Positions 5,620-49,769 are shown, numbered from the stretch's first letter. The stretch is 64,000 nucleotides of DNA from Candidatus Saccharimonadota bacterium (GCA_009777315.1 WRMD01000002.1:10401-74400); one strand, 5' to 3'. Notes: a model not told the origin generated them from the sequence alone. Numbers and translations: made by a program.

Positions 5620-5824
5620 CCTCCCACCCCCTACGGGTAGACACAGCGGAGGGAATAACCCCAATGGTCACCATTAGCGAATGTGCCTGGTTGAGCAATA
5701 GTAAAAGTTACATCAGCACGAGCGGCAGTCAGTATGTTAGATGAACTCCACCAAAGCCCCCAGTCGGATTGACCAGCTAGACCATTATTCGGGGCAAAGT
5801 ATGCTGCCGCGACAGTGGCGAAGG
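5620..5824 (-). repeat. hypervariable cassette arm L1 (left arm of element 5620-6186)
   Basis: Outer boundary cctcccaccccctacgggtagacacagcggaggg at 5620-5653 and inner boundary gacagtggcgaagg at 5811-5824. Stop codon at 5631-5633 (minus). Open frame: FATVAAAYFAPNNGLAGQSDWGLWWSSSNILTAARADVTFTIAQPGTFANGDHWGYSLRCVYP*. Confidence 0.9.
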
Positions 5825-5960
5825 GAATGAGGATGACCCCTGTTGTAACAGGGGTGGGTGATTTTGGAGTATAATTCTTTCTATTGTACAGTATAGCACA
5901 CTCGATGTCAAAAGTCAAGAGATTATGCTTATCTTGGGTCAACTTGAAGCCTTCGAGATC

Positions 5961-6186
5961 CTCCTTCGCCACTGTCGGGGCGGGTGATTTCTTCGGCAGT
6001 AGTCTAGAAAACGGTTTTCGCAATCAATCCAGCCACCCGCATATTCATAACTCATCGCTCGACTCGGGCTTGGGACCTAGCATCGCCTACATGACCACTG
6101 TAGCAATTAGTCCAGGTACTCATGGTCCGACTGCAAAGTTTCGTGGCTTCTCCCTCCGCTGTGTCTACCCGTAGGGGGTGGGGAGG
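5961..6186 (+). repeat. hypervariable cassette arm R2 (right arm of element 5620-6186)
   Basis: Inner boundary ctccttcgccactgtc at 5961-5976 and outer boundary ending gtagggggtggggagg at 6186. TAG at 6172-6174. Open frame: FATVGAGDFFGSSLENGFRNQSSHPHIHNSSLDSGLGPSIAYMTTVAISPGTHGPTAKFRGFSLRCVYP*. Confidence 0.9.
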
Positions 6187-6221
6187 AGATTCTAGGGGTT
6201 CGGGTCTGATATACTGTCTGT

Positions 6222-7970
6222 ATGAGGTTTTTTCGGGCGGCTAAGAATTATGGGGTCGTGTATCGGTTTATGCTGTCTAGTTTTGGGCGGGAATGGCGGA
6301 TTTGGGTGGCGCTCATGGTGCGGACGATTTCTTGGGTGATTCGGACGACGGTGCAGCCGATTTTGCTGGCGATGGTTTTGGCTCAGCTGGCGCAGGGGGA
6401 CTTTGAGAGTTTGCCGAGGACGGTGCTATTTTTTGCTATTGTGTCTGTCGTGAGTGGGGTGATGTCGCCGATAGCGGCGGTGCTGGGGATCGCTGGAGAA
6501 AGTATTGCGTACAAGGGGGTGTCGCTTGGGTATTTTAAGAAGTTGGTGTCGCTTGATACGGGGTTTTTCGTGGATAATATGTCGGGGAAGCTGACGTCGT
6601 CGGCGAGGCAGTTTACGGATAATGTGATTGAGTTTAGCCGAGATTGGCGGGAAGATTATGTGCCGGTGCTGGCGGGGCTGATTCTGCCGATTGGGGTTAT
6701 CATGTGGAGCGATCCGCTGTTGGGAGTGTTGGTGATTGTTTTGACGGTGGTGATGTTTTGGCAGATTGCTACGATTTCGCATAAATATGAGCCGTACCGG
6801 GCTAGGGCCAGGAAAGTTTATCATCGAATATCTGGGTTTTTGAGTGACACTATAACTAACATCGTGGCGGTGAAAAGTTGTGCTCAGGAAGAGCATGCGA
6901 TGGCGGTCTTTGAAAAAGATGTGGATGAAGAAGTGAAAGTGTTCATTGATAAGGCCGTGGTAAAGCAGAAGTATTCTTTGCGGAAGGAGCTGGCGGCGGC
7001 GTTGTTTTTTGCGGCGCTCCTTGGGGCGACGGTTTTTAGGTATCAGCAAGGGAGTATCGATCTGACAATTGCGGTGCTGGTGGCGACGTATATGTTGACG
7101 ATTATGCAGAGTATTTATATGTTGCCGGGGCTGGTCGAGAGACATGACGATCGGGTGGAGATTTTGAGTGAGGGGTTGGCGGTCTTGGCGACGAAGAGTA
7201 AGTTGGAGGATCCTAGGAAACCGATTGTGTTGAAGAGGGCGAAGGGTGGGGTGAAGCTGGAGGATGTGAGGTTTGCCTATGGTAAACAGGAAGTTATAAA
7301 GGGGTTGAATTTGACTATTGCGGCTCGGCAAAAACTGGGGGTGGTGGGAGAAAGCGGGGCGGGGAAGAGTACGCTAGCGAATTTGATCTTGCGATTTGTT
7401 GATCCGATTAGCGGGGTGGTGACGTTGGATGGGCATGATCTAAGGGATTTTCGGCAGACTGATTTGCATCGAAATGTTGCTTATGTACCGCAGGAGCCAC
7501 TGCTATTGCATGATACGGTGCGGGCGAACTTGAAGCTGGCGGCGCCGAAAGCGGCGGAAGAGGATTTGTGGAAGGCGCTCAGGAAAGCGCATGCGGCGGA
7601 TTTTGTGAAAGAGTTGCCGGATGGGTTGGATTCGGTGGTGGGCGAACGGGGAGTGAAACTGTCCGGCGGGCAGAAGCAGCGGATTGTGATTGCTCGGTCG
7701 CTGTTGCAGGATGCGCCGGTGATGGTGCTGGACGAGGCGACCAGTGCGCTGGATAGTGAGAGTGAGCAGATTATTAAGGATTCGCTTAAGGATGTGCTTA
7801 GGGGGAAGACGGCGATTGTTATAGCGCATAGGTTGTCGACGCTGGCCGATATGGATAGGATTATTGTGATGAAGGATGGGAAAATTGTGGAGGATGGGAC
7901 GCACTTGTCGTTGCTGCGACGGGATGGAGTGTACGCGAAGATGTGGAAGCGGCAGATTCGGGAGTGTTAG
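6222..7970 (+). CDS. ABC exporter, fused permease/ATPase
   Basis: 582 aa. Walker A is GESGAGKST, signature is LSGGQKQR and Walker B is MVLDEATSALD. TGaTATACT lies 6 nt upstream of the ATG. Confidence 0.9.
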   Translation: MRFFRAAKNYGVVYRFMLSSFGREWRIWVALMVRTISWVIRTTVQPILLAMVLAQLAQGDFESLPRTVLFFAIVSVVSGVMSPIAAVLGIAGESIAYKGVSLGYFKKLVSLDTGFFVDNMSGKLTSSARQFTDNVIEFSRDWREDYVPVLAGLILPIGVIMWSDPLLGVLVIVLTVVMFWQIATISHKYEPYRARARKVYHRISGFLSDTITNIVAVKSCAQEEHAMAVFEKDVDEEVKVFIDKAVVKQKYSLRKELAAALFFAALLGATVFRYQQGSIDLTIAVLVATYMLTIMQSIYMLPGLVERHDDRVEILSEGLAVLATKSKLEDPRKPIVLKRAKGGVKLEDVRFAYGKQEVIKGLNLTIAARQKLGVVGESGAGKSTLANLILRFVDPISGVVTLDGHDLRDFRQTDLHRNVAYVPQEPLLLHDTVRANLKLAAPKAAEEDLWKALRKAHAADFVKELPDGLDSVVGERGVKLSGGQKQRIVIARSLLQDAPVMVLDEATSALDSESEQIIKDSLKDVLRGKTAIVIAHRLSTLADMDRIIVMKDGKIVEDGTHLSLLRRDGVYAKMWKRQIREC

Positions 7971-7977
7971 ATTATAT

Positions 7978-8054
7978 TGGTGGAGTTACAGGGACTCGAA
8001 CCCTGGACCTCTTCCATGCCATGGAAGCGCTCTAGCCAACTGAGCTACAACCCC
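7978..8054 (-). tRNA. tRNA-Ala (anticodon GGC)
   Basis: The reverse complement folds as a cloverleaf: GGGGTTG acceptor with G3:U70, anticodon loop AUGGCAU, T-loop GGTTCGAGTCC, encoded CCA. Confidence 0.9.
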
Positions 8055-8160
8055 ATGCGATGAATGATCCTCGAAGGGGCAATAAAAAAGACGCACTTGA
8101 TTCAATACAGTATCTTGCGCATCTTTTATGTGTCTATTATATCGTTTTAGTTATAGCATT

Positions 8161-8463
8161 TCAAGTATTTGACAAAGCCTTGGTCTGGTGCAGCTTCATG
8201 CGGCTAAAATCCATCGCTAGGTTCTTCGACTGCTTGCGGGCAGTGCGCATATTGTTCTCGATTGTTTTTTTGCCGTTGCCGAGCGGGCTCTTCAATTCCT
8301 ACTTTACGCCACCTATGTCTAGATCGGGAGTCTTATAGCTCTCGCGACGTAAAAACACGACATCGGACTTAAAGTATTTGTTCGCCAAAATTAATGCCGC
8401 ACGCATTTCGTGATCCTTAGGATGGTCAATTATATTGGTTTTTACGATGACTTTGTATTTCAT
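8161..8463 (-). pseudogene. small PD-(D/E)xK nuclease-like gene interrupted by one in-frame TAG
   Basis: Hand translation gives MKYKVIVKTNIIDHPKDHEMRAALILANKYFKSDVVFLRRESYKTPDLDIGGVK*ELKSPLGNGKKTIENNMRTARKQSKNLAMDFSRMKLHQTKALSNT*. The TAG is at 8299-8301. The motif PD..(x9)..ELK fits a restriction-endonuclease-like fold. The segment is AT-rich. Confidence 0.5.
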
Positions 8464-8536
8464 ATGCTTTAGGTAAAGCTTAACATGTTTCTCCTGGGGA
8501 GAAAGTGGTTGAGCTTTCTTTCCTTCGCCACTGTCC

Positions 8537-8625
8537 TGCTAAGAACACAGCGGTTTTCTTCCTTTCCTGAACTACGCTTAAAAAGTCAGGGAAACCCTGA
8601 ACTTTTAAGCACACTAATCTCTGCC
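8537..8625 (+). repeat. repeat module family C, copy 1 (preceded by an orphan arm inner boundary at 8520-8536)
   Basis: ctgctaagaacacagcggttttcttcctttcc...aaaaagtcagggaaaccctgaactttt aligns with 18627-18725. It contains the hairpin GTCAGG-gaaac-CCTGA. Confidence 0.6.
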
Positions 8626-8678
8626 GAGCAAATGGCCATTTGTGAGCGAGCCGGATAAGATGGGTGGGGAGGGATGGG

Positions 8679-9653
8679 TTAGTGTTCGCCTTCGGTGTGG
8701 AAGCGGTCGTGGATTTCTTTTAAGTGTTGGTCGGTGAGGTGGGTGTAGACTTGGGTGGTGGAGATGTCGGCGTGGCCGAGGAGGCCTTGGACGGAGCGGA
8801 GGTCGGCGCCATTCATGAGGAGGTCGGTGGCGAAGGAGTGGCGCATGGTGTGGGGGGTGACTTTTTTGGTGATGCCGGCGAGCTTGGAATACTTATCGAC
8901 GAGGCGCTGAACGGAGCGGGCGGTGAGGCGGGCTGAATTCTTGTCGTCTTTGTCGTCTTTTTCTTTGGGATTAGGGCTGGTGATCTTGTCGCGGTAGTTG
9001 ATGAAGAGGGCTTTGGATTGGTCGTTTCTGGTGGCGAGGTAGTCGGAGATGGTTTCGGCGGCGGAGGGGGAGAGGAAGACGGGGCGGTCTTTGTCGCCTT
9101 TGCCGCGGACGACGAATTCGCGGCGTTCGAGGTTGATTTGGCCGCGGTCGAGGGCGACGAGTTCGGAGACGCGGAGGCCGGAGGAAAAGAGGAGCTGGAG
9201 GATGGCTTGGTCGCGGAGGTTGTCGGGGGGGATTTCGTTTAGGATGCGTTCGACTTCGTCGATTTGGAGGAAGGAGACTTGGGGTCTGACGACTTTGGGG
9301 AGGTCGATTTTAGCGGCGTCGAGGGATTTGATGTCACGGCGAGCGAGGTATTTTAAGAATTGGCGGAGGGCGATGATGTAGTAGGTTTGGGTGCGGATGG
9401 AGAGGGTTTGGCCGCGGTCATCTTTGTAGCGGTTGAGGTAGAGGCGGTACTGGCGGATGAGGTCGGGGGTGATGTCGGAGGGTTTGGCGGAGGAATCTTG
9501 GTCGGGGTTTTTGGGGTCGGCGGGGCGGTGGTCGTCGGCGAATTGGGCGAAGCGTTCGAGGTAGAGGCGGTAGTTGGCGATGGTGCGGAGGGAGCGGCCG
9601 CGCTCGATTTCGAGAAATTCGAGGAAGTTGTCGATGAGGTCGGTGATGTACAT
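8679..9653 (-). CDS. tyrosine recombinase, XerC/XerD family
   Basis: 324 aa. Catalytic motifs are ARLTARSVQR, HTMRHSFAT and LLGHADISTTQVYTH (R-H-R-Y set). Confidence 0.85.
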   Translation of the reverse strand: MYITDLIDNFLEFLEIERGRSLRTIANYRLYLERFAQFADDHRPADPKNPDQDSSAKPSDITPDLIRQYRLYLNRYKDDRGQTLSIRTQTYYIIALRQFLKYLARRDIKSLDAAKIDLPKVVRPQVSFLQIDEVERILNEIPPDNLRDQAILQLLFSSGLRVSELVALDRGQINLERREFVVRGKGDKDRPVFLSPSAAETISDYLATRNDQSKALFINYRDKITSPNPKEKDDKDDKNSARLTARSVQRLVDKYSKLAGITKKVTPHTMRHSFATDLLMNGADLRSVQGLLGHADISTTQVYTHLTDQHLKEIHDRFHTEGEH

Positions 9654-9685
9654 GTATATATTATAGTATGTTCGCGGGGTTTTGG

Positions 9686-10311
9686 TTAAGCCTTTTTCCA
9701 GTCGCCGTGGGTGTGGCGGCCGCGGCCGTGGACGAACCAGTCGAGAGGGTCGCCGGTTTGGATGGCGTCGTAGAGGGTTTTAGCTGAATCGGTGAAGAGG
9801 CGGTCGCGGATAGTGGTGCGGATGTTCTTTTGGATTTTGCGGCCGAAGGTCTCGCCGCGGGCGGTGCTTTCTACGCACTCTAGCTCGCAGTCGAGATTGT
9901 CGGCGTCTTTGACGATTTGGCTGGCGAGAGTTTGGCGGGCTTCGTATTCGTGCCAGAGGGCGCGAAGCTCGGCGGAGAGAGTGATGTCGGTGGTTTGGTC
10001 GGTGATGGCGAGTTTTTCGTCGCGGGTGGTGTACATGCGGGACATGGATTGGACGTCGCCGGTGCGGGTTTCGGTGATGTCGTGCATGAGGGCGATTTTG
10101 ACGACGTGGCCAGTGTCGACGTTTTGGCTTGGGCGATGGTCCAGGCGAGGATGGCGACGCGGAAGGTGTGTTCGGCGTTGTTGGCGAGGGGCAGGCCGCC
10201 GATTTGGTTCCAGGTGCGGGCGACGTGGCGGAGGGTGCCTATTTCGAAGAGGAAATTGACGTCGTTATTGGCGGCGGGGGTTTTGCGCTTGACGGATTTG
10301 ATCTGTTTCAT
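9686..10311 (-). pseudogene. HD-domain phosphohydrolase (YfbR-like 5'-nucleotidase family) with an apparent 1-nt frameshift
   Basis: ORF 9880-10311 carries the N-terminal part (FLFEIGTLRHVARTW...NNAEHTFRVAILAWTIAQ). ORF 9686-10087 carries the rest (MHDITETRTGD...). The frames join at the TTTT run at 10122-10125. Confidence 0.6.
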
Positions 10312-13233: not shown

Positions 13234-13358
13234 CAAAAGAATTACATATACCCCCTCGCAAACAGAATAAATCCCGCCTGTCTTTACAGGGGGATTTTTC
13301 TTCCCCCTCGGCTAGCCGCCTGCGGGACGTTGCTCGAAAGTATATGTCAATTCTTTTG
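13234..13358 (+). repeat. repeat module family B, copy 1 (nested hairpins including an intrinsic terminator at 13271-13300)
   Basis: Outer stem caaaagaattacatatac / gtatatgtcaattcttttg. The core is caaacagaataa + hairpin + TTTTCTTCCCCCTC.GCT..CGCCT..CGGGACGTTG, shared with 18415-18544 and 31571-31722. It lies directly after rpoD. Confidence 0.65.
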
Positions 13359-13383: not shown

Positions 13384-13582
13384 CTCCTTCGCCGCTGTCT
13401 CATCGGGCTGGAATGCAGGAGAACAGTCAACTTCTTCATATTGGTGGCCCTCATCACTAGATTCAAGCACAAATCCTTCTAGCGGTGCCATACTAAGCTC
13501 GATTCTTTGGCCGAGTACCGCAAACAACCATAAGTCCTACGGCTTCTCCCTCCGCTGTGTCTACCCGTAGGGGGTGGGGAGG
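13384..13582 (+). repeat. hypervariable cassette arm R3 (solo)
   Basis: Inner boundary ctccttcgccgctgtc at 13384-13399 and TAG at 13568-13570. The outer boundary ends 3 nt before the stop of the next gene. Open frame: FAAVSSGWNAGEQSTSSYWWPSSLDSSTNPSSGAILSSILWPSTANNHKSYGFSLRCVYP*. Confidence 0.9.
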
Positions 13583-15296: not shown

Positions 15297-16352
15297 CTAG
15301 AGCGGGACAATGATGTTGCCGGTGGGTTGGTCAATTTCGAGGCGACGAATAGCCTCAGCGATGAGTGGCGCGGTAAGCGGGAGTCGCGTCGCGCGAGACT
15401 TTTTTTCGAACGCAGCCCAAACGAGCGGGTCTTTGGGTATCGAGTCGGTTGTGATGAGCTTGTTGACGTAGTGGTTGCGGAGATTGAACTCGGGCATGAG
15501 AAACTCTCCAGGCTCGTACGAAAGCTGCGCGTGAATAACTAGCGCGAATAGTCGCTCGGGACGACACTTCCACACTAGGTCGGAGTTTGCCATGAGCGTG
15601 GTGCAACGGTCGGCCTCGTCGTCGACGATTAAGACTGTCGCGCCCTCTAAGGCTTGTCGGTTGTGGTCGCTTAAGCTTAGCTTGACCGCGCCGGTATCAT
15701 CGGGGCGAACCTTGTCCATGATGATGAGCGGCGTGCCAGCAGCGGTAAATAGCTCCGCGCGGGCGGCACTGCTTTTGTCGGCTGCAACAATGACGTTATA
15801 CGGAATGTTGGCCTGGGCCCATTCGGATAGACTGGGTAAAGCTGACACCGTGTGGTAGTCGATGCCTTTGTCGGTGAAGTATTTGGTCGAGCCTACGTCG
15901 TGCAGGTCGAGCGAAATGACCGCACTTGCCCCGGCGTAGGCAAGGGAATTGGCGAACAGGTCTAGTCCGCACGAAACGCCGGGGGTGTTGGCGCTACTAC
16001 GAGAGTAGAGCACGTAAGGCATGACGACGGTGATTCGGAGAGTCGGGCTCAGTGAACGGAGGGCCGCCACCATGCACTCGACTTCCATCTTGCGGTCGTT
16101 GACCGGCGGGTTGGCTGCTTGCACGACGTAGACTTGGCTGAAGTCATGCGGCTCAACGCGCGCGAACGAACTAGTGTTCAAAAACCTGGTGTGCTTAGCC
16201 GTGGTCAAAATCGATGCAGGGAGCATCTCGCTAAGCTCTTTGGTTAGCTGGTCGGCACCGGGTGATGCCGAGATGAACGCGGACCTTTGCATTGCTGGTA
16301 TTTGGGGCACTGAACATCCCTCCACCCTTCTTAAGATTTGGTTTGTCGGCAA
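15297..16352 (-). CDS. phosphoribosyltransferase / PRPP synthetase-like protein
   Basis: 351 aa. It has a Prs-like layout with ITVVMPYVLYSRS and the PRTase loop VLIVDDEADRCTT. The start codon is uncertain (the track start is TTG). Confidence 0.55.
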   Translation of the reverse strand: MPTNQILRRVEGCSVPQIPAMQRSAFISASPGADQLTKELSEMLPASILTTAKHTRFLNTSSFARVEPHDFSQVYVVQAANPPVNDRKMEVECMVAALRSLSPTLRITVVMPYVLYSRSSANTPGVSCGLDLFANSLAYAGASAVISLDLHDVGSTKYFTDKGIDYHTVSALPSLSEWAQANIPYNVIVAADKSSAARAELFTAAGTPLIIMDKVRPDDTGAVKLSLSDHNRQALEGATVLIVDDEADRCTTLMANSDLVWKCRPERLFALVIHAQLSYEPGEFLMPEFNLRNHYVNKLITTDSIPKDPLVWAAFEKKSRATRLPLTAPLIAEAIRRLEIDQPTGNIIVPL

Positions 16353-16390
16353 CTTGTTAATGTGCCTCCACCCACCTCAAGTATACCACA

Positions 16391-16399
16391 TGATATAAT
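16391..16399 (+). promoter_or_regulatory. extended -10 promoter (TGaTATAAT), leaderless
   Basis: The -10 element ends 6 nt before the ATG at 16406. Confidence 0.5.
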
Positions 16400-16405
16400 A
16401 TAGAT

Positions 16406-16873
16406 ATGATAGGCCGTATGCTGGGTAGGATAGTGTTTGGCGTTTTGGTCGCGGTGGCGGCGGGGTTTTTGGCGTGGCGATTTTTGAATGAGCAGATTAA
16501 GGCGTGGACGGATGAGCACTTGCCGTGGCATTTGGTGGCGCGCTGGGTGTACGACTGTCGGGCGGTGGACGAGGCGATTGCGAAATATGACGACTGGGAT
16601 CAGCGGACGATGCGGGCGATTGCGCGGGCGGAAAGTAAGTGCGATGTGAACGCGCTGGGTGATACGGACTTGACGTTTGAGGAGGATGGGCGAATCTATG
16701 GGTATTCGGTGGGGGCAATGCAAGTGCGGATTTTGCCGGGGCGGGAGCATTGTGACACGTTTGACGTGGCGAAGAACGTGGAGTGCGCCAACTGGATTTA
16801 TGGTGAGCAGGGACTTGGGGCGTGGTCGGTGTGGCGGGATGGCCGCTACGAACGGTATTTAGAGCCGGAGTAG
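16406..16873 (+). CDS. lytic transglycosylase (SLT domain) with N-terminal anchor
   Basis: AIARAESKCDVNALGD...GYSVGAMQV, containing the catalytic Glu-Ser motif. Confidence 0.65.
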   Translation: MIGRMLGRIVFGVLVAVAAGFLAWRFLNEQIKAWTDEHLPWHLVARWVYDCRAVDEAIAKYDDWDQRTMRAIARAESKCDVNALGDTDLTFEEDGRIYGYSVGAMQVRILPGREHCDTFDVAKNVECANWIYGEQGLGAWSVWRDGRYERYLEPE

Positions 16874-16874
16874 G

Positions 16875-17714: not shown

Positions 17715-17816
17715 CTAAACCTTTAGGGTCTTCATAATGGCTATATTCTAGCATAAGTATTCTGCGTGGTATAATAGTTGCATGTAGTTGATGGAGGAGA
17801 CAACGTGGAGAATGTG

Positions 17817-18392: not shown

Positions 18393-18414
18393 CCAGATAG
18401 CTTAAGCAAAAAGC

Positions 18415-18544
18415 TCATCAGGTACAGAATTTGCCCACAAACAGAATAAATCCATCCCATCGCCATGGGTGGATTTTTCTTCCCCCTCAGGCTGCCGCCT
18501 TCCGGGACGTTGTGAGGCAAATTGTACCTTGATACGGCTTTTGC
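18415..18544 (+). repeat. repeat module family B, copy 2 (terminator hairpin at 18450-18480)
   Basis: Outer stem ggtacagaatttgcc / ggcaaattgtacc plus aaaagc/gctttt. It has the same core as copies 1 and 3, and the inner hairpin has compensatory changes. Confidence 0.65.
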
Positions 18545-18597
18545 ATTACGATTACCAGACCTGGCCATCTTGATGCAAATCTTAACCTATCCTAACC

Positions 18598-18625: not shown

Positions 18626-18626
18626 G

Positions 18627-18792: not shown

Positions 18793-19001
18793 CTCCTTCG
18801 CCACTGTCCCGACTGGTCACTTCAACGGTAGCTTACGGGAGCAATCTATTGATTTGCGTTCGTGGGCTTCATCAGCTGGTCCGACAGCTTCTTCCCTTAC
18901 GGAGGTGCGGGGTACGTCTGTCATACCAGCTGATGTTACCGCTGGGTCTAGATATGCTGGTATCTCCCTCCGCTGTGTCTACCCGTAGGGGGGTGGGGAG
19001 G
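18793..19001 (+). repeat. hypervariable cassette arm R6
   Basis: Inner boundary at 18793-18808 and TAG at 18986-18988. There is one extra G in the G-run. Open frame: FATVPTGHFNGSLREQSIDLRSWASSAGPTASSLTEVRGTSVIPADVTAGSRYAGISLRCVYP*. Confidence 0.9.
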
Positions 19002-19433: not shown

Positions 19434-19663
19434 TCTCCCCACCCCCTACGGGTAGACACAGCGGAGGGACATGCCATAAAACCTAGCGTTACTGTTTACA
19501 CCGGGGACGATTCGAGGGGCATCTACAAGTGCGAAATGAACGTAGTCGTCAGAAGACAAGGATGCCGAATACCACTGCCCGTAATTAGACTGAAACGTCA
19601 GACCGTGGCCGAGGGCTGGGGCACCACCGGGAGCAAAGAAAGCCGTAGAGACAGTGGCGAAGG
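19434..19663 (-). repeat. hypervariable cassette arm L7 (left arm of element 19434-20011)
   Basis: The outer boundary starts 2 nt after the rnhA stop. The inner boundary is at 19650-19663. Open frame: FATVSTAFFAPGGAPALGHGLTFQSNYGQWYSASLSSDDYVHFALVDAPRIVPGVNSNARFYGMSLRCVYP*. Confidence 0.9.
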
Positions 19664-19791
19664 AAATGAAGACGACCTAAGCAGTTCAGCAAAGGTCGTC
19701 CTCAATACTACGATTATAGCAGTCTTATCTATAATTCCCATTTTCAAACCTTATCACGATATTCAACTCACATAAAGCATAACCCTTGTCC

Positions 19792-23847: not shown

Positions 23848-23905
23848 AATCTACAATTTTGGTTGACAGAAGGGTTCTCTAACGAGGGCCCTTTTTCTGG
23901 CGCTC

Positions 23906-24128
23906 CTCCTTCGCCACTGTCTCGGCAGACTATTTTGCCCCAGCTAGAGGTTTAAGAGCTACATTCGTCGGATATTGGATGACGCCGTCTCTATGGTCCC
24001 AGGTATCTGCAAGTTTAGTCGTTGTGGTTGAAGACGCTATCCACCCGGCAATAGTTGCAAGCAACCTGACCGGACGCAAACTTGATGGCTGGACCCTTCG
24101 CTGTGTCTACCCGTAGGGGGTGGGGAGG
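23906..24128 (+). repeat. hypervariable cassette arm R9 (solo, next to tRNA-Ser)
   Basis: Inner boundary at 23906-23921 and TAG at 24114-24116. The Leu codon is ctt. Open frame: FATVSADYFAPARGLRATFVGYWMTPSLWSQVSASLVVVVEDAIHPAIVASNLTGRKLDGWTLRCVYP*. Confidence 0.9.
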
Positions 24129-27952: not shown

Positions 27953-28163
27953 CCTCCCCACCCCCTACGGGTAGACACAGCGGAGGGTAATGCCTATTTG
28001 TTTTGGCAGGGTATTTGTAGCCGGGCTGAACGAATTCTGTTGCATGTTAAGGCGCATAAAGTGCGTAGCCGAAGCCAAAGATGGTGTGTGCCAAGATGTA
28101 TGCGTAGATTGAGTCTGTAGGCCATTTGGAATATGAAGAGTATCTGCCGAGACAGTGGCGAAG
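27953..28163 (-). repeat. hypervariable cassette arm L10 (element 27953-28488)
   Basis: Outer boundary at 27953-27987 and inner boundary at 28151-28163. Open frame from track ORF 27965-28222: FATVSADTLHIPNGLQTQSTHTSWHTPSLASATHFMRLNMQQNSFSPATNTLPKQIGITLRCVYP*. Confidence 0.9.
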
Positions 28164-28184
28164 AGAAACTTTATAAAGTTTCTC
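28163..28184. repeat. 22-bp perfect palindrome gagaaactttataaagtttctc
   Basis: Self-complementary by inspection. A second core copy is at 28222-28237. Confidence 0.85.
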
Positions 28185-28265: not shown

Positions 28266-28488
28266 CTCCTTCGCCACTGTCTCTACCGGGTTCTTTAGTC
28301 CTATAGCCTCTTATGCTGGTATGCGTAACCCGTCAGAGAATGCCACTTCGTGGACGGCGTCACTAGTCACGGTAATAAACTCTGCGGGTATGATGGTTAC
28401 TACAAATATCCGTCCGGGCGAAGGTTCTTTCGACACTAAAGCCTATGGCCTTTCCCTACGCTGTGTCTACCCGTAGGGGGTGGGGAGG
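28266..28488 (+). repeat. hypervariable cassette arm R11 (element 27953-28488)
   Basis: Inner boundary at 28266-28281 and TAG at 28474-28476. The Leu codon is cta. Open frame: FATVSTGFFSPIASYAGMRNPSENATSWTASLVTVINSAGMMVTTNIRPGEGSFDTKAYGLSLRCVYP*. Confidence 0.9.
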
Positions 28489-31722: not shown

Positions 31723-31733
31723 AGTGTCTTATA

Positions 31734-31948
31734 CCCCACCCCCTACGGGTAGACACAGCGGAGGGAATGGCCGTAATGCTTGTAGCGGCTTCCGGCTATA
31801 CCAGATTCTGTAGCGCTGATAGACACTCGCGTAAGAGCCGGGCGACTTGCTGCCACGTCAAGTGACGCGTTCATCCAGCGTTCTTGCTGAGATTGGCCAG
31901 TCACACCTTGTGACGACAGAAAGTAACTACTCGAGACAGTGGCGAAGG
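31734..31948 (-). repeat. hypervariable cassette arm L12 (element 31734-32331)
   Basis: The outer boundary starts ccccaccccctacggg, so the first 3 nt differ from consensus. The inner boundary is at 31935-31948. Open frame: FATVSSSYFLSSQGVTGQSQQERWMNASLDVAASRPALTRVSISATESGIAGSRYKHYGHSLRCVYP*. Confidence 0.9.
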
Positions 31949-32032
31949 AGGTCTAGCCCGCTAGCGCTCACGGGGGTAAGAAACTTTATAAAGCTTTGGA
32001 TTTAGGCTTATTTAACAGGGGTAAGTGTGAGG

Positions 32033-32056
32033 AGAGAAACTTTATAAAGTTTCTCT
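32033..32056. repeat. 24-bp perfect palindrome agagaaactttataaagtttctct
   Basis: Self-complementary by inspection. An imperfect copy is at 31980-31994. Confidence 0.85.
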
Positions 32057-32331
32057 TCGCCACTGTCTCGGAGGGGTTCTTTTGGTCGGGTACTGACATA
32101 CGGGAGCAGTCTGAGCTAACGCACTGGTGGTCTGGCTCGCTTTTCTCTAGCACAAGTCCTGCGCGTATCCGCTTAAGTGAAATAGCGATTGATCTGGCTA
32201 CTGGTACACACCAGAAAAACCATGGTAGATCCCTCCGCTGTGTCTACAGATACTCCTCCTACTCGCCTTGCAGGCTCGGACAGGACGCCCGAGGCAGGCA
32301 GAGCCTGACCTCGGGCTAGGGGGTGGGGAGG
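32053..32331 (+). repeat. hypervariable cassette arm R13 with an interrupted outer boundary
   Basis: The inner boundary ctcttcgccactgtc is at 32053-32067. The boundary is split after gtctac at 32247 by 69 nt and resumes with tagggggtggggagg at 32317. Frame from track ORF 31996-32319: FATVSEGFFWSGTDIREQSELTHWWSGSLFSSTSPARIRLSEIAIDLATGTHQKNHGRSLRCVY then RYSSYSPCRLGQDARGRQSLTSG*. Confidence 0.85.
32248..32316 (+). other. 69-nt insertion inside the arm outer boundary
   Basis: The sequence is agatactcctcctactcgccttgcaggctcggacaggacgcccgaggcaggcagagcctgacctcgggc. It contains the 8-bp hairpin gcccgagg...cctcgggc and replaces the ccg Pro codon. Confidence 0.8.
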
Positions 32332-38821: not shown

Positions 38822-39032
38822 TCTCCCCACCCCCTACGGGTAGACACAGCGGAGGGATGCAGCCCAAGATTTAGAGTGTGTGTAGGTGGCAGTTGATATG
38901 CGAGAAGCTACAATGTCGCCTCTATTTGCCTGGTCGTCAGAGAAGAGGGAAGGGTGCCAAAAGTTAGCAGCGCCTGATTGAATGGTCACACCATTGGGCG
39001 CAAGGAAGTCGTTAGACGAGACAGTGGCGAAG
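38822..39032 (-). repeat. hypervariable cassette arm L14 (element 38822-39158)
   Basis: Outer boundary at 38822-38856 and inner boundary at 39020-39032. Open frame: FATVSSNDFLAPNGVTIQSGAANFWHPSLFSDDQANRGDIVASRISTATYTHSKSWAASLRCVYP*. Confidence 0.9.
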
Positions 39033-39058
39033 TTGGTCTAGCTCGCTAAAACTCACGG

Positions 39059-39158
39059 GAGTCGGTGTCGCAAATATCCACTCCGGTATGCATACGGGCA
39101 GCTTAGGCAAAGCTTTTGGCCATTCCCTTCGCTGTGTCTACCCGTAGGGGGTGGGGAG
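39059..39158 (+). repeat. truncated cassette arm R15 (C-terminal ~30 codons only)
   Basis: There is no inner boundary. The frame is ...GVGVANIHSGMHTGSLGKAFGHSLRCVYP* with TAG at 39145-39147. The Leu codon is ctt. Confidence 0.75.
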
Positions 39159-39172
39159 ATTTTGGCAAATTC

Positions 39173-39307: not shown

Positions 39308-39517
39308 TCCCTTCGCCACTGTCACGGATAGCCAGTTTGTTGTGCAACAGGGTTTAGTTGGGCCGGGGACACGCGCTTTCTTTTGGACTTCATCTTTGAT
39401 TTCAAGTTCTAACCCAACTTACATATGGATTATGCCAACAGCAGTTGATATGTCGCGTTCTGATCGAGCCAAAGACCCTGGCTTCTCTCTCCGCTGTGTC
39501 TACCCGTAGGGGGTGGT
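39308..39517 (+). repeat. hypervariable cassette arm R16 (solo)
   Basis: Inner boundary tcccttcgccactgtc at 39308-39323 and TAG at 39507-39509. The G-tail is degenerate (gggggtggtgtg). Open frame: FATVTDSQFVVQQGLVGPGTRAFFWTSSLISSSNPTYIWIMPTAVDMSRSDRAKDPGFSLRCVYP*. Confidence 0.9.
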
Positions 39518-39534
39518 GTGTTAAAATATGGCAT

Positions 39535-40072: not shown

Positions 40073-40075
40073 AAA

Positions 40076-40101
40076 GTACGAAACTTTATAAAGTTTCGTA
40101 C
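40076..40101. repeat. 26-bp perfect palindrome gtacgaaactttataaagtttcgtac
   Basis: Self-complementary by inspection. Confidence 0.85.
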
Positions 40102-40125
40102 CCTCTCCCTGGAAACTCTCGAAGC

Positions 40126-40335
40126 CTCCTTCGCCACTGTCTCACAGGATATCCTGCTTGTTGCTACTGGCCTACTTAGTCAATCCGCTAGAGCAACATG
40201 GTGGTCAGCTGGTAATAATACCGGTACTACGTCATCAACTATTTCTATGGGAGTGGCTGATATAACTATGGCAGAATCCGGAGCCCTAAGATCTGACGGC
40301 AGATCCCTCCGCTGTGTCTATCCGTAGGGGGTGGG
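40126..40335 (+). repeat. hypervariable cassette arm R18 (element 39861-40335)
   Basis: Inner boundary at 40126-40141 and TAG at 40324-40326. The Tyr codon is tat (synonymous). Open frame: FATVSQDILLVATGLLSQSARATWWSAGNNTGTTSSTISMGVADITMAESGALRSDGRSLRCVYP*. Confidence 0.9.
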
Positions 40336-40338
40336 ACG

Positions 40339-40725
40339 TTACGGCCAGTCGTGAGGGGGTTCGTAGCAAACTTCAAAAGTGACTCCGGCGAGTGAGACTT
40401 TGTAGAGGTGGTAGGTGTAGGTGAGGAAGGGGGAGAGGTCTTCGATGGCGGTGGTTTCGAGGTCGGGGTATGTGGATTTGACGCGGGCGTGGCTGTTCTC
40501 GAATTCGTCTTGGCTGGCAAACTTGACGTGGATGGCGCCGGTGAGGGAGGTTTCGCCGTCCCAGTCGTCGGGTTGCCAGAGCCAAAGGTAAGATTCGTCC
40601 GGGAAGGCTACGACGGTCGCCGCGCCGTCGAGATCGCTGCGGATGGCGACGTCGGGGCGGATAATTTTAAGGAGTTGAATGAGCTTTTCGGTGGTGTCAG
40701 GTCGGCTTTTGAGAAATATATCCAT
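40339..40725 (-). CDS. hypothetical protein
   Basis: The track ORF 40339-40779 opens with a GTG inside an arm remnant. I prefer the ATG at 40725 (MDIFLKSRPDTTEKLIQLLK...). I recognise no motif. Confidence 0.45.
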   Translation of the reverse strand: MDIFLKSRPDTTEKLIQLLKIIRPDVAIRSDLDGAATVVAFPDESYLWLWQPDDWDGETSLTGAIHVKFASQDEFENSHARVKSTYPDLETTAIEDLSPFLTYTYHLYKVSLAGVTFEVCYEPPHDWP

Positions 40726-43277: not shown

Positions 43278-43485
43278 CCTCCCCACCCCCTACGGGTAGA
43301 CACAGCGGAGGGAGAGACCTATCCATGAATTGTTAGCGTATGTACCCGGGTAGATAATTGGAGGGCCCACCCATGTATAGATTGCGGTTGCTAAAGAAGA
43401 TAATGATGATAACCACCAGTGTTCGTTTTCGGTTCGTAAGCCAGACATACCGGTCTGAAGCCAACCCGTAGTGACAGTGGCGAAG
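43278..43485 (-). repeat. hypervariable cassette arm L20 (element 43278-43818)
   Basis: Outer boundary at 43278-43312 and inner boundary at 43473-43485. Open frame: FATVTTGWLQTGMSGLRTENEHWWLSSLSSLATAIYTWVGPPIIYPGTYANNSWIGLSLRCVYP*. Confidence 0.9.
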
Positions 43486-43602
43486 TTGGTCTAGCTCGCT
43501 AAAGCTCGCGATAAAGCAGACAAAATGTCATTTTGATCTGCTTTATGCCTACCGGCGTTCGCTAGCGCTCACGGGGGTAAGAAACTTTATAAAGTTCCGA
43601 CT

Positions 43603-43818
43603 CTCCTTCGCCACTGTCACTACGGACTATTTCACCGGCGGATCAGGACTTGTATTCAGAGACCCTGCGTATGCATATTGGTGGGGCTCATCGCTAACTT
43701 CGACTACCGGTATAGGCAATACCCATATCGGCGGACCTACTCTACGCCCAGGTACAGAAGGCGTAGGTAGATACTTCGGCTTCTCCCTCCGCTGTGTCTA
43801 CCCGTAGGGGGTGGGGAG
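43603..43818 (+). repeat. hypervariable cassette arm R21 (element 43278-43818)
   Basis: Inner boundary at 43603-43618 and TAG at 43805-43807. Open frame: FATVTTDYFTGGSGLVFRDPAYAYWWGSSLTSTTGIGNTHIGGPTLRPGTEGVGRYFGFSLRCVYP*. Confidence 0.9.
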
Positions 43819-43833
43819 ATCCAGTAAAGTGGG

Positions 43834-47863: not shown

Positions 47864-49075
47864 CTAACTTGACAGAGAGTCCTTTGCAACCCACAGCAAG
47901 CCGATGGCAGTGATGAAGGAATGGTCGATTTCTTCGATGCCGCGGTTCTTGATACCAGGGAGAGCGGAGGGGTCGATGAGCTTGACTTCGGGGGTTTTGG
48001 CGAAAGGGAGATCTTCGAGGAAAGAGTCCGACTTCAGGACTTCGGTGATTTGGTCGAGGCTGGCACCGCCGCCACAGAGGAGGATCTTGCTAGGGAGGTG
48101 GTCGAGGCCACCGAACTCTTCGAGAGACATGCCGACGCCGGCTTGCCAGATGGTGAGGCTAGGCTGGACTGCGGCTAGGATCCTTTCGCGGGTGGCGTCG
48201 CTGAGGGCGTCGCTGCCGAGGGCGAGTTTGCACTTTTCGGCCGCGGCCATGTCGAGGTCCATGGAGTCGGCGATTTGACGGGTGAAGGAGCGGCCGCCGA
48301 TGGCGAAGGATTTGGTGCCTTCGACGCCGCCGTTAGAAACGACCGCGACGTCGGTGGTGCCGCCGCCGATGTCGAGAATGATAGTGGTGATATTGGAGGC
48401 GGTTTGGTCGCCGACGACAGCGCGGAAAACGGCGAAGGGCTCGGTGGCGATGGCGAGGAGGTCGAGGTCAAGTTCGCGGCAGACGGCTTCCATGGGGCCG
48501 ATGTGGACGAGGGGGGCGAAGGCGGTGTAGATTTGGACGGCGATTTCTTTGCCGGGGAAACCGATGGGGTTGGTGACTTTGTAGCCGTCGATGTCCATAC
48601 CGACAAGGGCGGAGTTGATGAGGCGGATTTTGGTGTCGCGGTTGGTCTCGCGGTTGATTTGTTTTTCGGTGTTTTCGAGGGCGCGATTTTCGACCTTTTG
48701 GAGGATTGAATGCATTTCGTCTTCGGCGATGGGGGTTTCGTGGTTTTTGCGGCGGTAGGTAATGGTGGTGGCGGAGGCTTTGACGAGTTCGCCGGCGACA
48801 CCAACGACGGTTTTTCTGAGGGGTTGGCCGATTTGGCGTTCGAGTTCGGAGATGGCTTTTTCGCAGGCTACGGTAACAGCACGAATGTCGGCGATAGCGC
48901 CGTCGTGCATGGCGCCGGCCTCCTGGCGGACTTTGTTAGCACCGAGGATTTCGATGCGGTCGTCGAGCTTGGCGGCGAGGACTTTAACGAATTCGGTGCC
49001 GATGTCGAGCGCGAGGACGGCTTCGCCCTTAGTGGGCTTGAGCTTGGATAGCCTCTCTACAATCTTGTTCCGCAT
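47864..49075 (-). CDS. ftsA: cell division protein FtsA (actin-like ATPase)
   Basis: Motifs LALDIGTEFVKV, ILDIGGGTTDVAVV and LCGGGASL. I prefer the ATG at 49075 because TGaTACAAT ends 8 nt upstream. The track start is 49276. Confidence 0.8.
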   Translation of the reverse strand: MRNKIVERLSKLKPTKGEAVLALDIGTEFVKVLAAKLDDRIEILGANKVRQEAGAMHDGAIADIRAVTVACEKAISELERQIGQPLRKTVVGVAGELVKASATTITYRRKNHETPIAEDEMHSILQKVENRALENTEKQINRETNRDTKIRLINSALVGMDIDGYKVTNPIGFPGKEIAVQIYTAFAPLVHIGPMEAVCRELDLDLLAIATEPFAVFRAVVGDQTASNITTIILDIGGGTTDVAVVSNGGVEGTKSFAIGGRSFTRQIADSMDLDMAAAEKCKLALGSDALSDATRERILAAVQPSLTIWQAGVGMSLEEFGGLDHLPSKILLCGGGASLDQITEVLKSDSFLEDLPFAKTPEVKLIDPSALPGIKNRGIEEIDHSFITAIGLLWVAKDSLSS

Positions 49076-49321
49076 GTGGTTATATTGTATCACATTATGC
49101 TCCTGCCCGCCATTAATCGCAACATGGGTGACTCTCTGGGCTCGGTCGCTGGCTCGGTTTCTCGGACACAGCATCATTTTAATCCGTCGCCACGGACTAA
49201 AATGTGCTTTTACCTCGTGCTGCCGCACTCCGGGACATTCCTCAAAATCCGACCAGCATCCCGAGCCCGAGGTCATCCCGTTGCTAATCCTGCGGGCTAG
49301 AAGATAAGTTTGCTACATCTA

Positions 49322-49539
49322 CCCCGCCACCCCCTACAGGTAGACACAGCGGAGGGGGTGGCCACGGAACTTATGGCTGCCCGAACGGACTCCCGGGTCA
49401 ATAACAGTGGCGCTAACACCTGTGTAGCTCGGTGTTGTTGCGGAGAAAAGTGAAGAGGAACGCGGAACGAACCATGTGGATTGACCAATTAGGCCGCCAC
49501 TAGCAGGATTAAAGGCGTCTGATGAGGCAGTGGCGAAGG
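49322..49539 (-). repeat. hypervariable cassette arm L22 (element 49322-49769)
   Basis: This is the most diverged boundary (ccccgccaccccctacagg, giving RCVYL*). The inner boundary is ggcagtggcgaagg. Frame from track ORF 49334-49558: FATASSDAFNPASGGLIGQSTWFVPRSSSLFSATTPSYTGVSATVIDPGVRSGSHKFRGHPLRCVYL*. Confidence 0.85.
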
Positions 49540-49546
49540 CTCGCTC

Positions 49547-49769
49547 CTCCTTCGCCACTGTCGCGAATGGATTCTTTTACATTATTGCTCCTCTAGGGCC
49601 CGGGTTGAATAACCAGTCTGATCATGTATATTGGTGGAACTCTTCACTGGCTTCATCATCAAACATAGCTAACTCCGGTATGACCGTAGCACATCTGCAT
49701 GCGGGGGCGAACAGTAGCGTCAAGTTTATTGGCTTCTCCCTCCGCTGTGTCTACCCGTAGGGGGTGGGG
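49547..49769 (+). repeat. hypervariable cassette arm R23 (element 49322-49769, only 7 nt of spacer)
   Basis: Inner boundary at 49547-49562 and TAG at 49758-49760. Open frame: FATVANGFFYIIAPLGPGLNNQSDHVYWWNSSLASSSNIANSGMTVAHLHAGANSSVKFIGFSLRCVYP*. Confidence 0.9.

Follow-up and report, generated by a model that had tools for sequence, protein, structure and literature searches.

The window, by which we mean the whole 64-kb stretch of DNA that was analysed, contains 20 full-length arms, one truncated arm and two remnants of a dispersed family of short cassettes related to the lectin-like FISUMP (Fibrobacter succinogenes major paralogous) domain. A preliminary description of the same DNA had arrived at this count, with the remnant at 8521..8675 missing from its list. 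The arms lie in intergenic gaps near gene ends, dispersed among housekeeping genes, and take up about one tenth of a 44-kb region of the core chromosome; a profile search of the window gave zero copies before 5.6 kb or after 49.8 kb, and both the intergenic location and these limits are as described before. A gene for a Xer-type tyrosine recombinase, the only recombinase gene in the window, is located inside the cassette-rich region. The features are listed below; unless other evidence is given, a cassette was identified by its boundaries, open frame and profile match.

5619..5825, minus strand: silent cassette, 64 codons plus stop codon and G-rich tail, left arm of pair 1 (boundaries, open frame PFATV...YSLRCVYP-stop, profile match E 4.5e-24)
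5962..6186, plus strand: silent cassette, 70 codons, right arm of pair 1 (boundaries, open frame, profile match E 3.5e-24)
8521..8675, plus strand: atypical remnant with an exact 5' 15-mer, 135 nt unrelated to FISUMP, a stop codon and then GGGTGGGGAGG
8679..9653, minus strand: Xer-type tyrosine recombinase, context only (Pfam Phage_integrase, 5.6e-42)
13385..13582, plus strand: solo silent cassette, 61 codons
13975..14190, minus strand: solo silent cassette, 67 codons
18598..18632, minus strand: remnant of a lost left arm, degenerate 3' boundary alone with 6 mismatches (boundary match)
18794..19001, plus strand: silent cassette, 64 codons, one extra G in the tail
19434..19664, minus strand: silent cassette, 72 codons, left arm of pair (also identical in ENA contig L026)
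19793..20011, plus strand: silent cassette, 68 codons, right arm of pair (also ENA contig comparison)
23895..24128, plus strand: solo silent cassette, 69 codons, with the longest 5' extension, TTCTGGCGCTCC (open frame, upstream comparison with P0034)
27953..28165, minus strand: silent cassette, 66 codons, left arm of pair
28267..28488, plus strand: silent cassette, 69 codons, right arm of pair
31731..31949, minus strand: silent cassette, 68 codons, left arm of pair
32053..32331, plus strand: cassette disrupted by a hairpin-containing insertion of about 70 nt (open frame, profile)
38822..39034, minus strand: silent cassette, 66 codons, left arm of pair
39035..39159 (start approximate), plus strand: truncated cassette that retains no more than the 3' boundary and profile positions 24-66 (boundary, profile)
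39309..39521, plus strand: solo silent cassette, 66 codons
39861..40073, minus strand: silent cassette, 66 codons, left arm of pair
40127..40339, plus strand: silent cassette, 66 codons, right arm of pair
43278..43487, minus strand: silent cassette, 65 codons, left arm of pair
43604..43819, plus strand: silent cassette, 67 codons, right arm of pair
49322..49540, minus strand: silent cassette, 68 codons, left arm of minimal pair (7-bp spacer)
49548..49772, plus strand: silent cassette, 70 codons, right arm of minimal pair
57396..58112, minus strand: 238-aa gene homologous to the N-terminal domain of P0034/P0032, without cassette, context only (tblastn 33% over 190 aa, 44% over 149 aa)

The invariance claimed for the boundaries is real. 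At the 5' end, TCCTTCGCCACTGTC has 23 matches in the 64-kb window with at most 2 mismatches, against 0.22 expected by chance; at the 3' end, a 35-mer has 17 matches with at most 3 mismatches, against 0.00 expected. Looser boundary matching was needed to recover every arm on the earlier list. Both blocks are nearly invariant, synonymous and non-coding sites included, and the 35-mer is near-identical between copies at third codon positions as well as over the 12 nt that follow its stop codon, a G-rich, non-coding tail conserved at the DNA level. Homology between loci ends at the cassette boundaries; the sequence beyond the 35-mer is unique to each copy, with no target-site duplication at the flanks. 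Arm lengths range from 198 to 231 nt and differ by multiples of 3, the exception being the arm with an extra G in its tail. The insertion in the cassette at 32053..32331 sits inside the 3' boundary, between CTGTGTCTAC and TAGGGGGTGGGGAGG, and the remnant at 8521..8675 abuts the stop codon of the recombinase gene, leaving a gap of 3 nt.

Pairs of arms are divergent, with the geometry reported earlier and inner spacers of 7-136 bp. Most of these spacers measure 53-136 bp; in the minimal pairs (7-10 bp) the two 15-mers form a perfect inverted repeat around the spacer, and a cruciform is possible. The proposal that a pair constitutes a two-armed element with terminal inverted repeats is not upheld: each arm is an independent coding cassette, solo arms are as intact as paired ones, and the termini are inverted solely as a result of the divergent orientation of two cassettes. 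What had been taken for an outer terminal repeat is the conserved coding end of the cassette, with its stop codon and the 12-nt tail. The 35-mer with its flanks folds with −7.2 kcal/mol (z = -0.73 relative to shuffles), forming no significant hairpin.

In 19 cassettes, comprising 1272 codons, frame 1 contains 0 stops, whereas the other five frames contain 48-83 each. Every arm is such an open frame, 66-77 codons long, with a translation of the pattern SFATV...WW.SSL...G.SLRCVYP-stop (the stop codon being inside the 35-mer) and a coding-like composition at codon positions 1 and 2. The interiors had been called hypervariable, which is true of the DNA, as the longest stretch in common between 57 unique cassettes is 13 nt (one same-locus pair excepted); as proteins they are homologous, with 29-42% identity to a reference arm. 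The profile built from the cassettes aligns to the last 66 of the 430 columns of a full-length family (hhalign 99.5%, E 3.6e-22). This family matches PF09603 and TIGR02145 (FISUMP), with PF09603 precomputed for six relatives and a score of 50.3 bits for family member P0035 against TIGR02145, for which the cut-off is 41.65 bits; a single cassette matches positions 112-174 of the 176 of TIGR02145 with an E-value of 0.019, below the cut-off. The arms are protein-coding cassettes for the C-terminal third of the FISUMP (PF09603/TIGR02145) lectin-like domain. The multiple-of-3 length differences, the open frame in every arm, the protein-level homology of the interiors and the occurrence outside the window had escaped the preliminary description.

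The cassettes are presumably silent in place. An in-frame start codon and an upstream open reading frame are missing in most of them, several have a stop 1-4 codons upstream, and of 75 profile matches in the window and 24 loci, none is preceded by the remainder of the domain, a different paralogue in L014 excepted. One full-length gene of the cassette type was found in the same genome by a search of 1.84 billion representatives. Its product, P0034 (MCL2095134.1), belongs to the Candidatus Saccharibacteria MAG FWH13, which also contains the window proteins MCL2094600-646. It is a surface protein of 877 aa in which an N-terminal domain and IPT/TIG repeats accompany a FISUMP-like domain with the C-terminus FWRSSFATV...SLRCVYP-stop, sharing the boundary motifs of the cassettes, a match known at the protein level only. 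The 5' extension of the cassette at 23895..24128 encodes FWRS, which precedes SFATV in P0034; in other copies identity to this extension reaches 0-15 nt upstream, a ragged edge that fits the tract endpoints of homologous recombination and not a fixed crossover site. The donor of the present C-terminus of P0034 is not among the approximately 38 cassettes of the same genome (best identity 47%, shared peptides of at most 5 residues). Full-length FISUMP paralogues are numerous in Saccharibacteria.

Window positions 16019-22432 recur at 100% (6414/6414), and positions 1-5471 at 99.98%, in ENA contigs of sample ERZ27257348; an assembly artefact was therefore rejected. Arms, and with them the boundaries for which an artefact had been considered, are reproduced at 100% identity in other assemblies, and one locus with two cassettes is 100% identical in three assemblies; the silent copies are thus stable. 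Outside the window, the family is present in contigs L023, L024 and L027 of the same sample and in 21 JGI termite-gut contigs. The presence of about 38 cassettes in about 111 kb of a reduced genome suggests that they are maintained by selection.

The cassettes are most likely an ordered library of different C-terminal ends for a single lectin-like surface protein of a termite-gut epibiont, Candidatus Saccharibacteria. Probably they act as silent donors, and gene conversion transfers copies of them to a single expression gene, as it does for pilS, vls and p44. The preliminary description had matched the arms to no known class; silent donor cassettes of recombinational antigenic or ligand variation, a class it had not considered, fit. 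Each cassette encodes its own variant of the final 66-77 residues of the FISUMP domain and would not require a promoter. The conserved TCCTTCGCCACTGTC, extended upstream in some copies, would serve as 5' homology arm, and the 35-nt stretch, in which the final 7 codons are followed by the stop codon and GGGGTGGGGAGG, as 3' homology arm. Homologous, non-reciprocal recombination would then copy one archived cassette into the expression gene, replacing the presumed ligand-binding end of the adhesin and leaving the silent copies unchanged. For an obligate epibiont, the likely payoff is a surface lectin whose antigenicity or binding specificity changes rapidly. As expected for a gene-conversion system, the variable core is bounded by homology blocks conserved at the DNA level; the recombination event itself, its direction and enzymes, and the biological role are inferred.

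Several known systems resemble such a library. In Anaplasma, the msp2/p44 family consists of many truncated, start-less "functional pseudogenes" scattered around a small genome in either orientation, with a hypervariable core between short conserved stretches shared with one full-length expression gene. Start-less dispersed copies in either orientation, a hypervariable core, conserved edges and one full-length gene are all found here too. The differences are that Anaplasma is a rickettsial pathogen and the present organism a patescibacterial epibiont of the termite gut, that the protein there is porin-like and in the outer membrane, whereas here it is a FISUMP lectin-like adhesin, and that an internal region is swapped there, while the exchange proposed here concerns the C-terminal end with its stop codon; head-to-head pairs are also typical of the arms described here. 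In Borrelia, 17-bp repeats bound the exchanged region of vls, and in Neisseria a G4-forming sequence adjoins that of pilE. With Neisseria pilE/pilS and Borrelia vlsE/vls the cassettes share silent, promoterless copies, probably one expression locus, and short conserved bounding repeats, and with pilE a G-rich element beside the exchanged region, although the tail here has three G-runs only and a G-quadruplex is not established. The vls cassettes, in contrast, are about 90% identical and form one array beside vlsE, whereas the interiors here lack DNA similarity and the copies are dispersed singly or in pairs. The vls system is described in PMC2632889 and PMC11499132 as well. As for reduced genomes, a sizeable share of the DNA is given to dispersed partial copies of an adhesin gene here as in Mycoplasma genitalium, where these copies (MgPar) recombine with the adhesin gene. 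The MgPar copies, however, are long mosaics that resemble the expression gene, without sharp invariant boundaries or head-to-head pairs.

Gene conversion does not account for everything. The 15-nt core of the 5' homology is short for RecA-dependent exchange, which counts against it, as does the lack of a donor for the present P0034 C-terminus among the same-genome cassettes, and it does not explain the head-to-head pairing, the scatter between housekeeping genes or the abutting of gene ends; no two cassettes are similar, and the origin of the repertoire is therefore left unexplained as well. It is possible, if rather doubtful, that Saccharibacteria have a dedicated, programmed cassette-exchange system of an undescribed kind. 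A specialised mechanism, and not general homologous recombination, would then transfer unrelated lectin tails to one adhesin gene from a genome-wide archive of possibly at least 100, placed head-to-head in almost every intergenic gap, giving the epibiont a means to choose or change its bacterial host. The Xer-type recombinase could belong to such a mechanism, and so could the palindromic junction at the 5' end and the G-rich tail, which does not vary. If the system existed, it would be a recombination-based counterpart of the diversity-generating retroelements (DGRs) that diversify the same fold in other Patescibacteria.

Site-specific exchange of the same library, in which a tyrosine recombinase (8679..9653 or another) would act on the 15-bp 5' site as in the shufflon Rci/sfx or the phage Gin/Cin tail-fibre systems and link a cassette to the constant gene through inversion or cassette exchange, is unlikely. 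The 15-mers of minimal pairs, around their 7-10 bp spacer, do have a lox/dif-like geometry, and the Xer-type recombinase in the cassette-rich region is 3 nt from a remnant with an exact 15-mer. Most pair spacers, however, are far from minimal, solo arms have one site only and the 5' homology edge is ragged, not fixed. Inversion also gives no reason for the conserved 3' 35-mer. With cassettes scattered among essential genes, it would turn round long pieces of the chromosome, but the strand skew keeps one sign over almost the whole 64 kb. By its score the recombinase is an ordinary Xer equivalog (NCBIfam NF040815, 232 bits, cut-off 220 bits), and tyrosine-recombinase-like neighbours are weak matches that adjoin cassettes in only two other loci, L011 and L021. 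Shufflons and phage Gin/Cin/Min systems likewise have alternative C-terminal segments in both orientations and a short conserved junction of constant and variable parts. Theirs are compact clusters of convergent segments beside a constant gene and an invertase, with 3' ends that are not conserved, whereas the arms here are dispersed, with the 3' end best conserved. Shufflon or invertase switching was rejected in view of this dispersal, the lack of a fixed crossover and the Xer type of the only recombinase.

Still less probable is a selfish, MITE-like element that captured a gene fragment and spread into intergenic gaps without host function. The 35-bp inverted termini of the pairs and the dispersed, intergenic copies near gene ends are what it would predict, and shortness and dispersal between genes are common to MITEs, REP/BIME and attC elements. 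Target-site duplications and, in the window, a transposase are nevertheless absent; the interiors are unrelated as DNA, whereas recent transposition would leave them alike; arms that stand alone, with a single terminus, are intact; every copy keeps its frame open; and the supposed terminus, with its insignificant fold (z = -0.7), belongs to a gene family as the conserved end of its coding sequence. A MITE was rejected on the unrelated, coding interiors, the missing target-site duplication and the intact solo arms, REP/BIME on the boundary without stable hairpin, and an integron attC on the lack of an integron integrase and of a one-directional array. The earlier exclusion of REP/BIME, MITE, CRISPR and attC elements therefore stands, as does the report of no transposase, reverse transcriptase or target-site duplication in the window (Pfam on 53 ORFs; flanks).

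A relation to DGRs, with the cassettes as variable-region or template-like segments that rewrite the C-terminus of a target with FISUMP/C-type-lectin fold and the G-rich tail as an IMH-like element, is highly improbable. The IMH, where retrohoming is initiated, is located at the 3' end of a DGR variable region (Bordetella phage BPP-1), and C-terminal diversification followed by a conserved G-rich stretch resembles a variable region with its IMH. The scaffold class is the same, as DGRs have been reported to act on FISUMP domains, and Patescibacteria frequently carry DGRs (PMC11661182). No reverse transcriptase (RVT family) was found by Pfam among the 53 window ORFs or in the precomputed annotations of L023, L024 and L027, however, nor is there a template/variable pair, with at most 13 nt shared between interiors; assignment to the DGR class was rejected on these grounds. 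Differences affect all four bases, not adenine-templated positions alone, in-frame indels are common and lengths vary, and the silent copies are 100% stable across assemblies, so that the diversity here is an archive of fixed alternatives and is not made anew. There is equally little to be said for decayed fragments of full-length FISUMP paralogues, or small independent genes, without programmed exchange: despite the many paralogues and the ORFs of 60-120 aa sometimes predicted on cassettes, random loss would not cut more than 57 copies at the same nucleotide, all open and with 35 identical nt (12 of them non-coding), the start codon is missing in most copies, and one third of a lectin-like domain would be unlikely to fold alone.

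Silent-cassette variation is a known kind of system; its probable occurrence in Patescibacteria, with a FISUMP adhesin, would be new. A literature search found no report of a recombinational variation system or of such cassettes for Patescibacteria, and we know of no such system described for them. On the question of how ultrasmall epibionts (Patescibacteria/CPR) recognise and switch their bacterial hosts, the cassette library offers a concrete candidate host-binding or immune-evasion determinant with a testable switching mechanism. The FISUMP fold, a reported DGR target in other genomes, may also be diversified from a cassette archive. As a practical point, the cassettes are easily taken for non-coding repeats; where gene callers do predict ORFs on them, automatic annotation shows short hypothetical genes.

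The 15-mer that forms the conserved 5' boundary of the cassettes (TCCTTCGCCACTGTC) matches the window at 23 places with at most two mismatches, against 0.22 expected from shuffled sequences, and the 35-mer of the 3' boundary at 17 places with at most three mismatches, against 0.00 expected. All the arms listed in the preliminary description were found again once matching was loosened, but one atypical remnant was absent from that list. The window contains 20 full-length arms, one truncated arm and two remnants, the incomplete copies being:

~39035-39159, truncated arm
18598-18632, remnant, 3' boundary alone
8521-8675, atypical remnant, with an exact 15-mer

The cassette-free ends described earlier were also seen with a protein profile derived from the arms, all of whose matches in the window fall between 5.6 and 49.8 kb. 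The repeats are not the assembly artefact that had been considered, as contigs of ENA assembly ERZ27257348 reproduce the window sequence (6414 of 6414 positions identical for 16019-22432, and 99.98% identity for 1-5471).

Measured from boundary to boundary, the arms are 198, 207, 210, 213 (five arms), 216, 219, 222, 225 or 231 nt long, all divisible by three; the exception is an arm whose tail has an additional G. The frame starting at the first base of the 15-mer is open in every arm, begins with SFATV and ends with G-x-SLRCVYP, with the TAG stop codon falling within the 35-mer. In 19 arms (1272 codons) this frame contains no stops, against 48-83 for each of the five other frames. The translations are 29-42% identical to one reference arm and conserve Phe2, Ala3, Val5, WW.SSL, PG, K..G and LRCVYP. 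The interiors had been called hypervariable: among 57 unique cassettes, once a pair representing a single locus from two samples is left out, the longest stretch common to the interiors of any two is 13 nt. The open frame in all arms and the alignment at the protein level make the interior a diverged protein-coding segment. In a profile-profile comparison, the cassette alignment matched the last 66 of the 430 columns of the alignment of full-length relatives (99.5% probability, E 3.6e-22). These relatives carry PF09603, and one exceeds the TIGR02145 cut-off; the arms therefore correspond to the C-terminal third of the FISUMP lectin-like domain, with the first two thirds missing. AlphaFold gave no usable model for the full domain (pLDDT 31, with 9 sequences in the alignment), and a sequence search of the PDB revealed no relative. 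Rfam and tRNA scans of the window returned 6 tRNAs only and no RNA family on the arms. A reading of the arms as small-RNA genes or 5' leaders was dropped, since a near-consensus promoter is present in one spacer only (5911->5883) and some cassettes are convergent to gene ends.

The final seven codons, the stop codon and a non-coding stretch of 12 bases (GGGGTGGGGAGG) make up the 35-mer, which is near-invariant among all copies, third codon positions included. Beyond it, likeness ends within a few bases, at slightly differing points in each copy. The 5' edge is ragged: upstream of the core, identity to TTCTGGCGCTCC, which codes for FWRS, the residues just before SFATV in the full-length protein P0034, runs for 0 to 15 nt depending on the copy. 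The window cassette at 23907 reads PFFWRS before SFATV, and one cassette of locus L012 reads VWRS. We take this graded edge to be the mark of homologous-exchange end-points, unlike a fixed site-specific crossover. The 3' flank and boundary at window 31563-31783 resemble those of loci L012 and L007 (95% and 81%), with unrelated interiors and upstream regions, and homology between different loci breaks off at the cassette boundaries. These three sites were rejected as one orthologous locus with replaced cassettes because the shared flank is itself a repeat. Locus L012 holds unrelated genes of a type IV secretion system, and one protein encoded there is also on an ENA contig; this locus more likely represents a different position in the same genome or in one related to it. 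A two-cassette locus is 100% identical in three assemblies, which are perhaps not fully independent samples; the silent copies are stable.

The cassettes cannot be expressed in place. An in-frame upstream ATG, GTG or TTG is absent for most arms, and in several a stop codon precedes SFATV by one to four codons. In the pair with a 7-bp spacer, upstream extension of either frame would run antisense through the partner arm. The profile gave 75 matches in the window and 24 other loci, none of which extends upstream into the remaining domain, except for a conventional paralogue in L014, which ends in SVRCVFP and differs in its DNA at both boundaries. Host genes have a GC3 of 0.64-0.71, with a third-position GC skew of +0.70 for plus-strand genes and -0.68, on the coding strand, for minus-strand genes, so that the plus strand is strongly G-rich from genes of both orientations. 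In cassettes of either orientation, GC3 is 0.45 and the skew lies between -0.1 and -0.2; ordinary intergenic DNA has a GC content of 0.45 and a skew of +0.08. At codon positions 1 and 2 the cassettes retain a coding periodicity, while position 3 resembles non-coding DNA, a composition consistent with long-term silence. The missing strand skew was set aside as a sign of rapid turnover, given that intergenic DNA is equally skew-free and the silent copies are stable.

The strand asymmetry of the region is extreme, with a GC skew of about +0.3 on average over the 64 kb (per-gene values for 38 genes), despite genes being divided about equally between strands and unique intergenic DNA being almost skew-free. 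The sole large gene without strand skew (-0.02) encodes an ABC-F type ATPase (24986-26368, minus strand); the surrounding GC content is lower (0.46), and a recent acquisition or inversion of the gene is possible.

By exact look-up, the proteins of the window correspond to MCL2094600-MCL2094646, from an 84.5-kb contig of a Candidatus Saccharibacteria MAG with locus tags FWH13_*. The 25-mer core of the 3' boundary was found elsewhere only in 21 JGI contigs, which from their sample names we take to be termite-gut metagenomes, and in one MAG contig; a scan of viral contigs for it gave no match. When 1.84 billion representative proteins were searched with the profile, the matches comprised many short ORFs called on cassettes, together with long proteins carrying the module at their extreme end. 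Of the long proteins examined, only P0034 (877 amino acids) has cassette-type boundaries, matching at the protein level with the ending ...TFWRSSFATVTTG...FRGHSLRCVYP. This protein corresponds to MCL2095134.1 (annotation: IPT/TIG domain-containing protein), encoded on an 18.5-kb contig of the same MAG as the window. The others belong to a broad Saccharibacteria surface family with an N-terminal domain, IPT/TIG repeats and at least one FISUMP-like module, ending in (A/S/T)VRCV(F/W/Y)P; a search with the C-terminal 240 amino acids of P0034 found conventional paralogues only, ending in VRCVFP. The window contributes 21 cassettes, L024, shown to be from the same genome, 8, and L027 and L023, counted as the same sample, 5 and 4, making about 38 in about 111 kb. 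The genome thus holds one full-length cassette-type gene and many cassettes. Mosaic segments were not found among the 57 unique cassettes. No donor of the present ending of P0034 is among the ~38 cassettes in ~111 kb, which is uninformative, as most of the genome lies outside this set.

Two short ORFs from other metagenomes, P0054 and P0063, are cassette-like with variant ends (SFATV...TLRCIFP and AFATV...SLRCLFP), which suggests related cassette systems with boundary sequences of their own in other lineages. The sole genome-collection match to the 25-mer is a 3.2-kb cassette contig binned as Defluviitaleaceae (L001, WRAN01000031.1). A 10.6-kb contig (L002, JGI Ga0209755_10008909; GC 0.47, skew-free) has cassettes with the same boundaries, some degenerate, and also codes for a GH36 melibiase, an EF-G-like protein and a two-component system. 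For these two contigs, either the binning is wrong or the cassette family extends beyond the FWH13 lineage.

An archive, one expression-type gene, two homology blocks, ragged edges and stable donors together make up the anatomy of recombinational variation systems, and gene conversion, in which silent cassettes are copied into one expression gene, is in our judgement a reasonably probable explanation. A cassette would be copied non-reciprocally into that gene between both boundaries, and the terminal portion of the lectin-like domain, probably its ligand-binding part, would thereby be swapped. We infer the recombination step, its direction, the enzymes and the biological role alike. Saccharibacteria live attached to other bacteria, making it plausible that the system serves to alter the binding targets of the cell or to evade something that recognises the protein. 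Established systems with this anatomy are Neisseria pilE/pilS, Borrelia vlsE/vls, Anaplasma msp2/p44 and Mycoplasma MgPar. The vls system has been described (PMC2632889, PMC11499132).

The tightest pairs suggest a different route, site-specific exchange by a tyrosine recombinase. Their 5' cores face each other as an inverted repeat of 14-15 bp with 7-10 bp in between, a lox-like geometry, and an Xer-type tyrosine recombinase gene (8679-9653) lies 3 nt from the atypical remnant bearing the exact 15-mer. However, spacers are mostly 53-136 bp, solo arms carry a single site, the 5' edge is ragged, and such exchange would need no 3' block. The recombinase scores as an ordinary Xer, and no comparable one lies beside cassettes at the other loci, with weak partial matches in L011 and L021 only. 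A link to diversity-generating retroelements is worth considering, as FISUMP is a reported target class of these elements, in which Patescibacteria are rich (PMC11661182), but no reverse transcriptase was found among the 53 window ORFs or the annotated neighbouring loci, the 57 unique cassettes contain no template/variable pair, and their differences involve indels and all four bases. As the preliminary description held, the arms match neither MITEs, failing for want of target-site duplication, with dissimilar interiors and a coding frame, nor REP-like hairpins, which are excluded because the 35-mer folds no better than shuffled sequence; random gene decay cannot produce identical truncation points plus open frames in all copies.

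Gene conversion leaves three things unexplained. One is the frequency of head-to-head joining, where the 7-10 bp between the 5' cores of the tightest pairs are the RS-codon extension of one partner. Another is the placement in nearly every intergenic gap, a few bases from gene ends, of a core-chromosome region where dnaG, rpoD, the RRF gene, ruvX, obg and tRNAs are among the neighbours. The third is the origin of a repertoire with no two similar members. Literature searches for antigenic variation, gene conversion or silent cassettes in Saccharibacteria or Patescibacteria, and for cassettes in connection with termites, gave nothing relevant. The kind of system is already known, and the phylum is new. 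Also new are the protein scaffold, a fold reported elsewhere as a retroelement target; the exchanged part, a C-terminal end with stop codon and G-rich tail; and the dispersed head-to-head layout with unrelated interiors.

Another family of repeats, each about 110 nt long, occurs at:

window 13257-13343
window 18421-18529
window 31593-31701
L012 11190-11294
L007 ~800-920

It contains a terminator-like hairpin (ATCCCGCC...GGGGGGAT, then a T-run), with compensatory changes among copies, and a conserved CCCCCTCAGGCTGCCGCCTTCCGGGACGTTG after the hairpin. Copies are located after rpoD, a DUF308 gene and a pilin-like gene, directly adjoined by a cassette in two cases. An 18-bp perfect palindrome, GAAACTTTATAAAGTTTC, is present once or twice in the longer spacers that separate divergent cassettes (some 12 of the 58 upstream regions), and could be a small element inserted on its own or a site bound by a protein. 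It lies in:

28166-28266, spacer
31950-32052, spacer
40074-40126, spacer
43488-43603, spacer
18633-18793, spacer
L004, L018 and L022

The spacer at 5826-5961 contains a module 85% identical to one upstream of a cassette in L012 (10845-10958), with a near-consensus promoter, TTGACA-17-TACAAT (5911->5883, minus strand), and a hairpin, ACCCCTGTTGTAACAGGGGT. Promoter and hairpin are both aimed into a cassette, so that this cassette would be transcribed and might form the leader of the operon starting at 5427.

The cassette at 32053-32331 has an insertion of about 70 nt (32251-32320) with its own inverted repeat (GCCCGAGG...CCTCGGGC), splitting the 3' boundary between CTGTGTCTAC and TAGGGGGTGGGGAGG and lengthening the frame by 23 codons. 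Genes next to the elements make use of their sequence. At 32340-32349, a cassette-tail GGAGG lies about 10 nt ahead of the start codon of the next gene and may be its ribosome-binding site. The ORF at 39445/39528-39882 (plus strand) terminates at a stop codon that falls within a reverse-complemented 35-mer. Cassette-rich regions also contain surface-machinery genes (28533-31393 and 47864-49276), encoding a prepilin-type protein (30884-31393) and a PilM/FtsA-like protein, and L012 carries a type IV secretion set at 2341-10008 (VirB4/TraG-like, PrgI and T4SS pilin).
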